Shown one piece after another: positions 11,714 through 19,640 of a DNA stretch of 64,000 nt. This DNA comes from Escherichia coli. GTDB lineage: Bacteria > Pseudomonadota > Gammaproteobacteria > Enterobacterales > Enterobacteriaceae. Under the pieces are notes generated by a model, which made no database searches, had not been told where the DNA came from, and was given only the letters and a program-made list of their open reading frames with translations. Numbering within the stretch: the stretch's first letter is position 1; the number at the start of each line of letters is the position of its first letter. Made by a program: the position numbers and the translations under genes. Where the stretch lies: the NCBI RefSeq assembly GCF_009931435.1, contig NZ_CP043414.1. One strand, written 5' to 3'.

Positions 11714-12625
11714 ATGAAAATTACCGTATTGGGATGCGGTGCCTTAGGGCAATTATGGCTTACAGCACTTTGCAAACAGGGTCACGACGTTCAGGGCTGG
11801 CTGCGCGTACCGCAACCTTATTGTAGCGTGAATCTGGTTGAAACCGACGGTTCGATATTTAATGAGTCTCTGACCGCCAACGATCCCGATTTTCTCGCCA
11901 CCAGCGATCTGCTCCTGGTGACGCTGAAAGCATGGCAGGTTTCCGATGCCGTCAAAAGCCTCGCGTCCACACTGCCTGTAACCACGCCAATACTGTTAAT
12001 TCATAACGGCATGGGCACCATCGAAGAGTTGCAAAACATTCAGCAGCCATTACTGATGGGCACCACCACTCATGCCGCCCGCCGCGACGGCAATGTCATT
12101 ATTCATGTGGCAAACGGTATCACGCATATTGGCCCGGCACGGCAACAGGATGGCGATTACAGTTATCTGGCGGATATTTTGCAAACCGTGTTACCTGACG
12201 TCGCGTGGCATAACAATATTCGCGCCGAGCTGTGGCGCAAGCTGGCAGTCAACTGTGTGATTAATCTACTGACCGCCATCTGGAATTGCCCGAATGGTGA
12301 ATTACGTCATCATCCGCAAGAAATTATGCAGATATGCGAAGAAGTCGCGGCGGTGATCGAACGCGAAGGGCATCATACTTCAGCGGAAGATTTGCGTGAT
12401 TATGTTATGCAGGTGATTGATGCAACGGCGGAAAACATTTCGTCGATGTTGCAGGATATCCGCGCGCTGCGCCACACCGAAATCGACTATATCACTGGTT
12501 TTCTCTTACGCCGCGCTCGCGCGCATGGGATTGCCGTACCGGAAAACACCCGCCTGTTTGAAATGGTAAAAAGAAAGGAGAGTGAATATGAGCGCATCGG
12601 CACTGGTTTGCCTCGCCCCTGGTAG
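11714..12625 (+). CDS. panE: 2-dehydropantoate 2-reductase
   Basis: Track ORF, 303 aa; N-terminal Rossmann motif VLGCGALG. Confidence 0.93.
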
Positions 12626-13178
12626 TGAAGAGACTGAAGCCGTCACCACTATCGATCTGCTGGTTCGCGGCGGTATCAACGTCACCACTGCCAGCGTCGC
12701 CAGCGATGGTAATCTTGCGATTACCTGCTCACGCGGCGTGAAGCTGCTGGCGGATGCGCCGCTGGTCGAAGTAGCTGATGGCGAATATGACGTGATCGTG
12801 CTGCCTGGTGGCATTAAAGGCGCGGAGTGTTTTCGTGATAGCACCCTGCTGGTTGAAACCGTGAAACAGTTCCACCGTTCCGGGCGTATCGTCGCGGCTA
12901 TTTGCGCCGCACCAGCCACCGTGCTGGTGCCTCATGATATCTTCCCGATTGGCAATATGACCGGCTTCCCGACGTTGAAAGACAAAATTCCTGCTGAACA
13001 ATGGCAGGACAAGCGCGTCGTCTGGGATGCTCGGGTAAAATTGCTGACCAGTCAGGGGCCAGGTACGGCTATTGATTTTGGTCTGAAAATTATCGACCTG
13101 TTGGTTGGGCGTGAAAAAGCCCATGAAGTGGCATCACAACTGGTGATGGCGGCAGGGATTTATAATTATTACGAGTAG
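12588..13178 (+). CDS. yajL: DJ-1/PfpI-family deglycase YajL
   Basis: Start at [15 protein letters not shown] with RBS aaggag, giving 196 aa; overlaps the panE 3' end by 38 nt. Confidence 0.92.
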
Positions 13179-13179
13179 T

Positions 13180-13222
13180 GTCAGATGCGGCAAACGTCGC
13201 ATCTGACCAGATGCGACGTCAC
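13180..13222. terminator. Hairpin between the convergent yajL and thiI; possible bidirectional terminator
   Basis: tcagatgcg-gcaaacgtc-gcatctga stem-loop; no strong T-run. Confidence 0.4.
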
Positions 13223-13231
13223 AACCACAAA

Positions 13232-14680
13232 TTACGGACGATACACCTTCACATTGTTAAAGCCCTGCTCGCGCAGATAGAGCGCCTGCAGGCGGCTCAT
13301 CACCCCGCGCTCACACCACAACAGCCAGGTTTTGTTCTGGTCGAGATCGCCAAATTTGGTGCTCAGTTTATAGAACGGCAGAGAAACCACGTCGATACCT
13401 TCAACTCTCAGCGGCTTATCTTCTTGTTCATCAACAGAACGGATATCGAGGATCACGTCGTTCGGGCCGAAGCCGTTGACGGTTTCCACTTCCACCACTT
13501 CCTGCTCGGTCTGCTGAGCGATTTCGCGGATATCAACGTTATTCGCTTCCTCAACCACTTTATCGAGAATGCTGAAGTCGAACTTCTCTTCTTCCGCTTC
13601 AATCTTCGATTTAACCGCTTTCACCGTCGGGCTTTTGGAGATAACACCGCAGTATTCCGGCATGGTGCGGGCAAAATCTTCGGTGCCAATCTGGCGAGCC
13701 AGGTTGATGATGTGCTCTTTGTCGTAAGAGATCAGCGGACGCAGGATCAGCGTATCGGAGACGTTATCAATCAGGCGCAGGTTGGTTAGCGTCTGGCTGG
13801 ACACCTGTCCCAGCGCTTCGCCGGTGACGAGCGCCTGTACGCCGTAACGTTCAGCCACTTTAGACGCGGCACGCACCATCATACGTTTGAGAATTACGCC
13901 CATCTGACCGTCGTCGATTTTCTCGAGAATTTCACCGACGACCGGCTCAAAGTTAATGGCGACAAAACGCACGCGGTGGGAGCTACCAAAACGGTTCCAC
14001 AGATAATGCGCCACCTGACGAACACCAATTTCATGCGCCGCGCCGCCGAGATTAAAGAAGCAGTAATGCACGCGGCAGCCGCGACGCATCAACATATAAC
14101 TGGAAACACCGGAGTCGAAACCACCGGAAATAAGCGACAGCACATCTTCCTGGGTGCCGATTGGGAATCCGCCAATACCTTCGTAACGACCTTTAATCAG
14201 CAGGAGACGATCGTCTTCAACTTCCAGATGGACAGTCACATCCGGATTGGTCAGCTTCACGCGCGCGGATTCAATATGCTGATTTAAACCGCCGCCGACG
14301 TAACGTTCCACATCAATCGAGCTAAACTCATGTTTACCACGGCGCTTCACGCGTACGCAGAAGGTTTTACCTTCCAGCTGATCGCGATACTGAACCAACG
14401 CTTTCTCAAAAATATCGTGCATGTCGGTAAACGGCACGTCTTCGACTTCGAGAATATGGTGGATACCCGGAATACGGGTCAGGGCGTCGCGAATAGCCAG
14501 ACGCTGGCTTTCATCTTTTGCGCGAACTTCGATGTTATCCCAGTGGCGGACGACAGCGAGTGTCTCATCATAGTGCTTTAAAACGTTACGAATGTTCCCG
14601 GTAAGGATTTTTATAAAGCGCAAGCGCACAGATTGGCTTTTGATGGTGATTTCCGGGAACAATTTAATGATAAACTTCAT
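13232..14680 (-). CDS. thiI: tRNA 4-thiouridine synthase / thiazole sulfur carrier
   Basis: Track ORF, 482 aa; PP-loop SGGFDS and C-terminal rhodanese-like region. Confidence 0.95.
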
Positions 14681-14885
14681 GGCGGCAATGGTTCGTTGGC
14701 AAGTCTTAAGCGACTTGTATAGGGAAAAATACAGCAGCCCACACCTGCGGCTGCATCCAGGCGCGGAAGTATACCACTAACATCGCTTTGCTGCGCACAT
14801 CACCTTACCATTGCGCGTTATTTGCTATTTGCCCTGAGTCCGTTACCATGACGGGGCGAAAAATATTGAGAGTCAGACATTCATT

Positions 14886-17939: not shown

Positions 17940-18085
17940 AAGAAATTATTCATAGACTCTAAATAATTCGAGTTGCAGGAAGGCGGCAAACGAGTGAAGC
18001 CCCAGGAGCTTACATAAGTAAGTGACTGGGGTGAACGAATGCAGCCGCAGCACATGCAACTTGAAGTATGACGAGTATGGCAGGA
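17940..18085. repeat. ERIC (IRU) element between dxs and yajO
   Basis: Contains gtgaagccccaggagcttacat and aagtaagtgactggggtgaacg, near-identical to the two halves of the ERIC imperfect palindrome (recalled ERIC primer sequences). Confidence 0.7.
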
Positions 18086-18093
18086 GTGGCAGC

Positions 18094-19068
18094 ATGCAAT
18101 ACAACCCCTTAGGAAAAACCGACCTTCGCATTTCCCGACTTTGCCTCGGCTGTATGACCTTTGGTGAGCCGGATCGCGGTAATCACGCATGGACACTGCC
18201 CGAAGAGAGCAGCCGTCCCATCATTAAACGCGCGCTGGAAGGCGGCATAAATTTCTTTGATACCGCCAATAGTTATTCTGACGGCAGCAGCGAAGAGATC
18301 GTCGGTCGTGCACTGCGGGACTTTGCCCGTCGTGAAGACGTGGTCGTTGCAACTAAAGTGTTCCATCACGTTGGTGATTTGCCGGAAGGATTATCCCGTG
18401 CGCAAATTTTGCGCTCTATTGACGACAGCTTGCGACGTCTCGGCATGGATTATGTCGATATCCTGCAAATTCATCGCTGGGATTACAACACGCCGATCGA
18501 AGACACGCTGGAAGCCCTGAACGATGTGGTAAAATCCGGGAAAGCGCGTTATATCGGCGCGTCATCCATGCACGCCTCGCAGTTTGCTCAGGCGCTGGAA
18601 CTGCAAAAACAGCACGGCTGGGCGCAGTTTGTCAGTATGCAGGATCACTACAATCTGATTTATCGCGAAGAAGAACGAGAGATGCTGCCGCTGTGTTATC
18701 AGGAAGGCGTGGCGGTGATTCCGTGGAGTCCGCTGGCGCGGGGACGTCTGACGCGTCCGTGGGGAGAAACCACCGCGCGGCTGGTGTCGGATGAAGTGGG
18801 GAAAAATCTCTACCAAGAAAGCGATGAAAATGACGCGCAGATCGCAGAACGGTTAACAGGCGTCAGTGAAGAACTGGGGGCAACGCGAGCACAAGTCGCG
18901 CTGGCATGGTTGTTGAGCAAACCTGGCATTGCCGCACCAATTATCGGTACATCGCGGGAAGAACAACTTGATGAATTGCTGAACGCGGTGGATATCACCT
19001 TGAAGCCGGAACAGATTGCTGAACTGGAAACGCCGTATAAACCGCATCCGGTCGTAGGATTTAAATAG
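18094..19068 (+). CDS. yajO: Aldo-keto reductase YajO
   Basis: Start moved to MQYNPLGKTDL with RBS caggag, giving 324 aa; the track's upstream start lies inside the ERIC element. Confidence 0.9.
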   Translation: MQYNPLGKTDLRISRLCLGCMTFGEPDRGNHAWTLPEESSRPIIKRALEGGINFFDTANSYSDGSSEEIVGRALRDFARREDVVVATKVFHHVGDLPEGLSRAQILRSIDDSLRRLGMDYVDILQIHRWDYNTPIEDTLEALNDVVKSGKARYIGASSMHASQFAQALELQKQHGWAQFVSMQDHYNLIYREEEREMLPLCYQEGVAVIPWSPLARGRLTRPWGETTARLVSDEVGKNLYQESDENDAQIAERLTGVSEELGATRAQVALAWLLSKPGIAAPIIGTSREEQLDELLNAVDITLKPEQIAELETPYKPHPVVGFK

Positions 19069-19076
19069 GAATCCAG

Positions 19077-19110
19077 GCCTGATGAGACGTGACAAGCGTC
19101 ACATCAGGCA
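19077..19110. repeat. REP-like palindrome between the convergent yajO and pgpA
   Basis: gcctgatgagacgtgacaagcgtcacatcaggc, a nested inverted repeat. Confidence 0.5.
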
Positions 19111-19121
19111 TCGGTGCACAG

Positions 19122-19640
19122 CTACGACAGAATACCCAGCGGCCAGTGATGACCAATAAAGTACAGGATGCCTGCGGAAATCACCCCGGCGACGATATCA
19201 TCTATCATGATCCCCATGCCGCCATGCACATTGCGATCAAACCAGCGGATCGGCCACGGTTTCCACATATCCAGAATACGGAAAATCACAAACCCGGCGG
19301 CGACCCACTGCCAGTCATTGGTCGGCAATGCCATGAGCGTGATCCACATGCCGATAAATTCGTCCCAGACAATGCTGCCGTGATCATGCACGCCCATATC
19401 TTTTGCGGTCTGATGACAAAGATAGACGCCAATACAGATCCCCAGCATGACTACCAGTGAATAGAGCTGCCAGGGCAAAAAGGTCATCAGATACCAGAAC
19501 GGAATCGCCGCCAGCGACCCCATCGTGCCTGGAACAATTGGGCTTAATCCACTACCAAATCCAACAGCAAGCAGATGCCACGGATTACTCAGCTTAAGGC
19601 GACTTTTCGCGACATCTTTATGGCGTGGCAAAATGGTCAT
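19122..19640 (-). CDS. pgpA: Phosphatidylglycerophosphatase A
   Basis: Start moved to [12 protein letters not shown], giving 172 aa; its 5' end overlaps the thiL 3' end by 23 nt. Confidence 0.9.

Follow-up and report, generated by a model that had tools for sequence, protein, structure and literature searches.

Gene overlaps in a 64-kb Escherichia coli window: standard start-stop junctions and two long overlaps that probably arose by drift of gene ends

The window analysed here, a 64,000-nucleotide stretch of Escherichia coli DNA (contig NZ_CP043414.1 of assembly GCF_009931435.1), contains several pairs of neighbouring genes whose coding sequences overlap, most extensively panE with yajL and thiL with pgpA. 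Overlap coordinates were obtained by mapping the RefSeq coding sequences of NZ_CP027579.1 onto the window, and start and stop codons were taken from its sequence itself. From ampG to iprA the window proves collinear with E. coli chromosomes. A 9-kb query (11500-20500) is at least 80% covered in 5,423 of 5,426 complete E. coli genomes, at 95-99% identity.

A preliminary description of this DNA had listed five overlaps, and all five lengths proved exact: panE/yajL 38, thiL/pgpA 23, cyoB/cyoC 11, sbcD/sbcC 4 and xseB/ispA 1 nucleotides. The gene names given there were right as well, and the comparison with annotated starts that it proposed reproduces every coordinate in the reference genome NZ_CP027579.1. 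Its list was incomplete, however, omitting cyoC/cyoD (1 nucleotide), a TacA-like antitoxin/GNAT acetyltransferase pair (17 nucleotides) and a DUF2773/SF0329-family pair (4 nucleotides). Overlaps thus join 8 of the 39 co-directional neighbour pairs in the window, each with both its genes on one strand. Since 24% of K-12 co-directional pairs lie at -8 to +6 nucleotides (PMC10666635), this frequency is ordinary. More than 80% of overlaps are shorter than 30 bp (PMC12548453), and the only two in the window that belong to the uncommon tail are panE/yajL and thiL/pgpA.

The overlaps are real and conserved, belong to the E. coli core genome as ordinary operon junctions, and are already catalogued: the supplement of Huber 2023 (PMC10666635) lists K-12 distances of -38 for panE-yajL, -23 for thiL-pgpA, -11 for cyoB-cyoC, -1 for both cyoC-cyoD and xseB-ispA, and -4 for sbcD-sbcC. 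The short overlaps are standard start-stop junctions, and the long ones are probably by-products of drifting gene ends and not devices for coupling translation.

The panE/yajL junction

panE, the gene for 2-dehydropantoate 2-reductase, occupies positions 11714-12625 on the plus strand (303 codons) and ends with TAG at 12623-12625. yajL, which encodes a DJ-1 family protein, follows on the same strand at 12588-13178 (196 codons), with its ATG at 12588-12590. The 38 shared nucleotides (12588-12625) encode PanE codons 292-303 and, in the +1 frame, YajL codons 1-13. The panE stop sits within the yajL codons GGT-AGT, which specify Gly12-Ser13, the Gly-Ser of a conserved GSEE motif. A Shine-Dalgarno sequence, AAGGAG (12575-12580), lies 7 nucleotides before the yajL ATG and doubles as PanE codons Lys288-Glu289. 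Its anti-Shine-Dalgarno duplex of -9.1 kcal/mol, compared with a window median of -5.65, is among the strongest in the window.

At each long overlap, Pfam and PDB comparisons place a conserved piece of one protein over the non-domain end of its partner. The last Pfam domain of PanE, ApbA_C, extends to residue 289, and what the overlap encodes, from codon 292 onward, is a non-domain tail. PDB entries 1yjq and 2ofp carry the full-length PanE sequence, the chain in 1ks9 has 291 residues, and distant solved homologues in the PDB align only to residues 280-290. In YajL the DJ-1_PfpI domain begins with residue 4, and the strand that opens the fold is encoded within the overlap. Residue 3 of human DJ-1 aligns with YajL residue 2, and PDB entries 2ab0 and 5sy4 match YajL residues 1-196. 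Among the Enterobacterales compared, the PanE tail differs between genera and the YajL N-terminus is conserved.

The 38-nucleotide overlap recurs in E. albertii, Citrobacter, Enterobacter and Providencia; Acerihabitans has 41 nucleotides. An additional base in Photorhabdus puts a TGA in frame, so that PanE ends 14 codons earlier, 2 nucleotides before the yajL ATG. The Shine-Dalgarno sequence is kept in all compared Enterobacterales (as AAGGAA in Citrobacter) except Providencia, where it is degenerate, GCGAGAAG. Compared with E. albertii, the overlap has diverged at 0 of 38 sites, the panE flank by 12.5% and the yajL flank by 9.2%. Across the comparisons made, the overlap carries 0/38, 5/38 and 5/38 changes against 12.5-27% in panE, although the site counts are small.

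Initiation at yajL has been observed directly in vitro. INRI-seq (PMC9825163, Table S2) places a peak of 67-74 at the annotated start in five of five replicates. The template held only 30 nucleotides upstream of the yajL ATG and no panE start, so that initiation in vitro needs no translation of panE. An in-frame GTG at 12582 was considered as an alternative start; it stands 1 nucleotide past AAGGAG, with poor spacing and a duplex of -2.8 kcal/mol, and the ATG at 12588 is preferred.

Long prokaryotic overlaps are, as a class, enriched in mispredicted starts, and the two described here might be annotation artefacts, with translation of yajL and pgpA really beginning only past the panE and thiL stops. 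At yajL this is contradicted from three sides. The fold begins inside the overlap, with domain matches reaching back to residues 2-4, which makes a yajL start beyond the panE stop untenable; the in vitro peak falls on the annotated ATG; and that ATG is conserved in nine Enterobacterales loci, most of them with a recognisable Shine-Dalgarno sequence. The evidence at pgpA, which is less one-sided, is taken up below.

panE and yajL are listed as an operon (PMC8743547), and a scan for sigma-70-like consensus sequences gave no site ahead of yajL inside panE, a weak negative. The junction is known from genome recoding: Mukai et al. 2015 (PMC4434889) noted that panE runs into yajL and added a codon to panE to replace its TAG while sparing the yajL serine codon, since the stop itself could not be recoded without touching that codon. 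Their account describes the overlap but not initiation or coupling at the junction. Elsewhere in panE, codon 185 (12266-12268) specifies Leu in the window and Pro in the K-12/PDB sequence and in NZ_CP027579.1.

The thiL/pgpA junction

On the minus strand, thiL (thiamine-phosphate kinase) occupies 19618-20595 (325 codons) and stops with TAA at 19620-19618, and pgpA (phosphatidylglycerophosphatase A) occupies 19122-19640 (172 codons), with its ATG at 19640-19638. The 23-nucleotide overlap (19618-19640) encodes PgpA codons 1-8, a non-domain N-terminal extension. Here it is the end of the upstream protein that is conserved. The pgpA ATG is made of the ThiL codons TAT-GAC, the Tyr-Asp of a conserved C-terminal GYDHF motif, and solved ThiL homologues in the PDB end at G[FY][DQ]HFA, either as GFDHFA or as GYQHFA. 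The Pfam domain of PgpA comprises residues 24-161, which leaves residues 1-23 outside; a sequence search found no solved relative of PgpA.

The pgpA frame offers two early starts, the ATG at 19640 and a TTG at 19631 (codon 4), and then none before codon 17. The overlap measures 23 nucleotides with the ATG and 14 with the TTG. Codon 17 (19590-19592, minus strand) is CTG (Leu) in the window, as in NZ_CP027579.1; it is ATG (Met) in K-12 and three sampled E. coli, TTA in Enterobacter and TTG in Arsenophonus. Leu17 thus removes from the window the only downstream in-frame ATG that precedes the conserved PgpA domain. The 90-nucleotide junction allele of the window has a match of at least 99% identity in only 11 of 5,424 genomes.

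It is at pgpA that a start downstream of the overlap has something in its favour: residues 1-23 lie outside the Pfam domain, the annotated start has neither an in vivo nor an in vitro initiation peak, and an in-frame ATG past the thiL stop is present at codon 17 in K-12 and most E. coli. The comparisons argue otherwise. PgpA codons 10-16 (VAKSRL) are conserved at the protein level and vary synonymously among Escherichia, Citrobacter and Enterobacter, which indicates that they are translated, and the stretch from the thiL stop to codon 10 contains no in-frame start codon. Furthermore, codon 17 is CTG, TTA or TTG in some genomes, yet the gene is under strong purifying selection. The window and NZ_CP027579.1 differ at 17 nucleotides of pgpA and at a single amino acid, with Leu17 common to both, and so the protein is maintained without Met17. 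Taken with the findings at yajL, this leaves the idea that the long overlaps are annotation artefacts largely refuted and scarcely credible. Experimentally mapped starts downstream of the overlaps, which the preliminary description had named as its refutation, are very unlikely given the comparative and structural evidence.

The arrangement of the two genes varies with lineage. Four E. coli sequences show no variation across the overlap, and an overlap of 23 nucleotides recurs in E. albertii, Citrobacter and Enterobacter. Elsewhere the two genes lie closer to abutting: Photorhabdus (ATGGATAA) and Arsenophonus (ATGACTGA) have them at -8, four Pseudomonas, two Pseudoalteromonas and Rheinheimera at -4, and other lineages at -1, +2 or +3; the cross-genome median for ThiL-PgpA is -4 over 280 genomes (PMC10666635). 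In Acerihabitans the TATGAC sequence is present, the pgpA frame is closed, and pgpA begins at +3, after the thiL stop. These patterns suggest that the pgpA ATG owes its existence to ThiL and came to serve as a start in Enterobacteriaceae, where it would have added about 7 residues (MTILPRH). Divergence from E. albertii is 1/23 in the overlap, 11.5% in the thiL flank and 17.9% in the pgpA flank, and changes in the overlap number 1/23, 2/23 and 3/23 against 11.5-23% in thiL, again with small site counts. At both long junctions the nucleotide divergence is lower than in the flanking coding sequence, as expected where DNA codes for two proteins at once.

Some genomes carry thiL with no pgpA downstream, namely Superficieibacter, Providencia and an Enterobacterales metagenome-assembled genome (loci L006, L010 and L023). 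In Superficieibacter the ThiL Tyr-Asp codons are TAC-GAT, and no ATG is formed. The idea that selection for the pgpA ATG holds the ThiL tyrosine codon as TAT and not TAC led to no conclusion, as Acerihabitans and the metagenome-assembled genome L023 keep TATGAC unused and the sample is small.

The signals for pgpA translation are poor. Its Shine-Dalgarno duplex is weak, at -3.3 kcal/mol, and INRI-seq shows no peak at pgpA, although the pool contained its template at 57.6 reads per million. The translation efficiency of pgpA is 0.26 compared with 0.82 for nusB in the same operon (Burkhardt et al. 2017). ribE-nusB-thiL-pgpA are listed as an operon (PMC8743547), and the sigma-70-like consensus scan found no site ahead of pgpA inside thiL, which is likewise a weak negative. 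On these grounds some dependence of pgpA on thiL translation is plausible.

The overlap has also been noted in work on thiamine metabolism. A 2024 study using a biosensor for thiamine pyrophosphate (TPP; PMC11143247) reported that pgpA partially overlaps thiL, so that the standard Keio pgpA deletion clips 20 nucleotides of thiL. It also found that TPP drops when pgpA is deleted, even where the deletion spares thiL, and that supplying pgpA on a plasmid undoes the drop. Initiation and coupling at the junction are not described there. The TPP effect and the wide conservation of the thiL-pgpA pair together suggest a functional link between ThiL and PgpA.

Coupling, occlusion and drift of gene ends

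The preliminary description read the overlaps as a sign of translational coupling. According to a recent review (PMC12548453), coupling works best at distances of -4 to +3 nucleotides and drops faster with overlap than with spacing, and in one systematic reporter study it was absent at -25 nucleotides. In three native E. coli pairs (hyfH-hyfI, ydbH-ynbE and menD-menH), a 38-nucleotide gap cut reinitiation by 80-100% (PMC10666635). This dependence on distance makes the -1 and -4 junctions credible sites of coupling and the -38 and -23 junctions poor ones. The claim is therefore reasonable for the window's -1 and -4 pairs, which share the geometry of tested E. coli pairs, and doubtful for panE/yajL and thiL/pgpA, where reinitiation would have faded by about -25 nucleotides.

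For all the overlaps to serve termination and reinitiation, the two long ones included, a ribosome would have to slide back 35 nucleotides from the panE stop or 20 from the thiL stop. Coupling at an overlap of -50 nucleotides is known from the coat and lysis genes of phage MS2 (PMC12548453). Both long pairs are listed as operons, their overlaps are kept across genera and diverge less than their flanks, and pairing of thiL and pgpA at -4 is widespread. The weak pgpA Shine-Dalgarno sequence, the lack of an autonomous peak in vitro and the effect of PgpA loss on TPP fit such a scheme as well. Set against this are the distance measurements just cited, the strong yajL Shine-Dalgarno sequence and its use in vitro without upstream translation, and the dual coding that by itself predicts low divergence in an overlap. 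Moreover, the common-complex subunits in the table of PMC10666635 are only the cyo and sbc pairs, and not panE/yajL, thiL/pgpA or xseB/ispA. Reinitiation throughout is accordingly judged unlikely.

The lysis gene of MS2, like the downstream genes of the window's long overlaps, lies on the same mRNA in another frame and starts tens of nucleotides before the upstream stop (about -50; PMC12548453). There, the lysis start is otherwise closed and is opened by coat termination. In the window, by contrast, yajL initiates autonomously in vitro and predicted opening energies are average.

A stronger proposal can be made for pgpA by itself. In Enterobacteriaceae pgpA might have no working ribosome-binding site of its own and depend entirely for its translation on ribosomes that terminate at the thiL stop and then back up by about 20 nucleotides to the AUG in the GYDHF codons. 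This is a long shot. If it held, PgpA output would be locked to ThiL output, in keeping with the report that PgpA loss lowers cellular TPP, and the junction would be an instance from nature of ribosomes going back and reinitiating efficiently at -23 nucleotides, a distance at which hardly any reinitiation was seen in reporter studies.

An effect of the opposite sign can also be imagined, in which heavy traffic of ribosomes along panE or thiL hides the embedded ribosome-binding site and limits initiation downstream. The yajL and pgpA sites do lie wholly within the upstream coding sequence, pgpA translation efficiency is low, and a ribosome at the thiL stop would, by footprint geometry, cover about 19635-19608, leaving no room for a 30S subunit at the pgpA start. 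The same reasoning would keep a ribosome at the panE stop clear of the yajL site, 35 nucleotides away. thiL and panE also appear to be weakly translated, with no INRI-seq peak at thiL and neither gene passing the coverage filter in the table of Burkhardt et al. 2017, so that occlusion would be rare. Negative coupling of this kind is thus quite improbable.

Drift of gene ends is the probable origin of the long overlaps. A general model, reportedly put forward by Fukuda et al. in 2003 and by Johnson and Chisholm in 2004, is said to derive overlaps from terminal extension, through loss of a stop codon or a shift of the start codon. Both long overlaps in the window are assigned to this class, with no substantive difference from it. 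The PanE tail and the PgpA N-terminus are non-domain, poorly conserved ends, and orthologous junctions free of the extension exist: Photorhabdus PanE, and pgpA at -8 in Photorhabdus and Arsenophonus, at -4 in Pseudomonas, Pseudoalteromonas and Rheinheimera, and at +3 in Acerihabitans.

Under end drift, the panE frame would have overrun its last conserved domain by 12 codons, coming to a stop at a TAG that happened to lie within the Gly-Ser codons of yajL. Most translation of yajL would start afresh at the strong AAGGAG that the gene has inside panE, and ribosomes translating panE would at most keep that site unfolded. In Enterobacteriaceae the pgpA frame would have lain open back to the ATG in the ThiL Tyr-Asp codons, a gain of about 7 non-domain residues. 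With its weak ribosome-binding site, pgpA would be poorly translated, probably mostly in the wake of thiL translation. At xseB/ispA, cyoC/cyoD and sbcD/sbcC, as in the E. coli pairs that have been tested, ribosomes ending the upstream gene could restart on the downstream one. cyoB/cyoC, at -11, is intermediate; it has a good Shine-Dalgarno sequence, and autonomous initiation is possible there too.

Several points weigh against this account or limit its reach. The distance dependence of coupling derives from reporter constructs and from other genes. Predicted opening energies over -20 to +14, for which local folding is a crude guide, are 9.9 kcal/mol for yajL and 10.8 kcal/mol for pgpA against a median of 10.1 in 62 window genes; such average values give no positive sign of facilitation by unfolding, and coupling of yajL or pgpA through RNA unfolding was for that reason not adopted. 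The comparative sample is small, with seven Enterobacterales loci for panE-yajL and seven for thiL-pgpA. At pgpA the ATG at 19640 and the TTG at 19631 are not told apart as starts, and because many annotated starts lack an INRI-seq peak, the missing peak there is weak evidence. Ribo-RET values (Meydan et al.) are zero for yajL, panE, pgpA, thiL, ispA, cyoC and sbcC and so neither confirm nor contradict the starts, and the literature reached gives no in vivo measurement of start sites or coupling for these pairs. Coordinates, conservation, domain boundaries, Shine-Dalgarno strength, initiation at yajL in vitro and operon membership are established by this analysis or by the papers cited; how far downstream translation depends on the upstream gene in vivo, and which start codon pgpA uses, we infer.

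Other proteome and ribosome resources are equally silent. These genes go unmentioned in the main text of the Meydan et al. preprint, and of panE, yajL, thiL and pgpA, Burkhardt et al. 2017 list pgpA alone. Among the rows listed in the TRAINSPOTTER N-terminomics supplement, b0424, b0418, b0421, b0397, b0430 and b0429 are absent, and those listed in the supplement of Mori et al. 2021 include one panE and one pgpA row, almost all zeros, and none for yajL or thiL.

Overlaps that stand in the reference E. coli annotation and are tabulated genome-wide carry little weight for discovery. Their practical consequence is that engineering either long junction alters two proteins together, as the panE recoding and the Keio deletion of pgpA illustrate. 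They also offer a clean, small example of how long overlaps may originate, with a dispensable end laid over the conserved end of a neighbour. thiL/pgpA is the one junction in the window where a coupling experiment could inform.

Two regularities may be recorded beside these. The ATG of each long overlap is formed by a tyrosine TAT and the following GAN codon of the upstream gene, TAT-GAG in panE (12587-12592) and TAT-GAC in thiL (19636-19641). All four window overlaps longer than 4 nucleotides (38, 23, 17 and 11) are 3n+2 nucleotides long and so place the two genes in the same relative frame, which with four cases may be chance.

Short junctions and flanking features

The remaining overlaps are short or intermediate. 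On the plus strand, cyoB (3307-5298) and cyoC (5288-5902) share 11 nucleotides at 5288-5298, ATGGCAACTGA, and cyoC and cyoD share 1 nucleotide at 5902, in TAATG. The same TAATG joins xseB (14886-15128) to ispA (15128-16027) at position 15128. sbcD (39315-40517) and sbcC (40514-43657) overlap by the 4 nucleotides ATGA at 40514-40517, also on the plus strand. The TacA-like antitoxin gene (7318-7629; PF08681) and the GNAT acetyltransferase gene (7613-8155) share 17 nucleotides at 7613-7629 on the plus strand. Finally, on the minus strand, the DUF2773 gene (47579-49858) and the SF0329-family gene (47127-47582) share ATGA at 47579-47582.

These junctions compare closely with the start-stop pairs characterised by Huber and colleagues in 2019 (PMC6728339) and 2023 (PMC10666635). 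sbcD/sbcC and DUF2773/SF0329 have the same ATGA geometry, and xseB/ispA and cyoC/cyoD the same TAATG geometry. Near-abutment of stop and start, at -8 to about +6 nucleotides, is found at all four (-4 and -1, respectively). It is borderline at cyoB/cyoC (-11) and TacA-like/GNAT (-17) and absent at panE/yajL (-38) and thiL/pgpA (-23), which fall outside the range of efficient reinitiation, -8 to +6 (PMC10666635). Subunits of complexes are enriched for such overlaps (PMC10666635), and sbcDC and cyoBCD belong to this class. The pairs tested were hyfH-hyfI, ydbH-ynbE and menD-menH, to which the window pairs are likened by geometry only. On that analogy, it is reasonable to regard the -1 and -4 junctions as credible coupling sites, particularly those between the subunits of SbcCD and of cytochrome bo3.

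The short spacings are widely kept. Cross-genome median distances (PMC10666635) are -3.4 for SbcD-SbcC (861 genomes), -1.1 for CyoB-CyoC (773 genomes), -1 for CyoC-CyoD (419 genomes) and -0.1 for XseB-IspA (831 genomes). In 53 of 62 proteobacterial loci the xseB/ispA spacing lies between -20 and +12, with a mode of -4. INRI-seq peaks, which arise without upstream translation, are present at ispA, cyoC and cyoD as they are at yajL; sbcC has none.

Several observations concern the DNA around these genes. A TPR-protein gene (8211-9146, minus strand) adjoins the TacA-like/GNAT pair, and all three lie between cyoE and yajR, where K-12 has a gap of 148 nucleotides. The trio (7318-9146) looks like a small accessory toxin-antitoxin islet. 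The DUF2773 gene is intact, with 759 codons, and lies with the downstream SF0329-family gene between rdgC and ppnP, an interval for which the K-12 tables examined list only ykiA and ykiD. An Rfam scan of the whole window returned no family at gathering score. Several E. coli genomes carry, within the equivalent of 11500-20500, an extra segment of about 1.9 kb with a pentapeptide-repeat protein gene that the window does not have.

Identity between the window and NZ_CP027579.1, the genome that matches it best, is a mosaic. cyoC, cyoD, the toxin-antitoxin pair and the genes from adrA to ddlA are at 100%, and the lower values include secF (95.8%), ppnP (96.1%), yajD (96.3%), pgpA (96.7%) and thiL (97.0%). 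This pattern suggests recombination between E. coli lineages.

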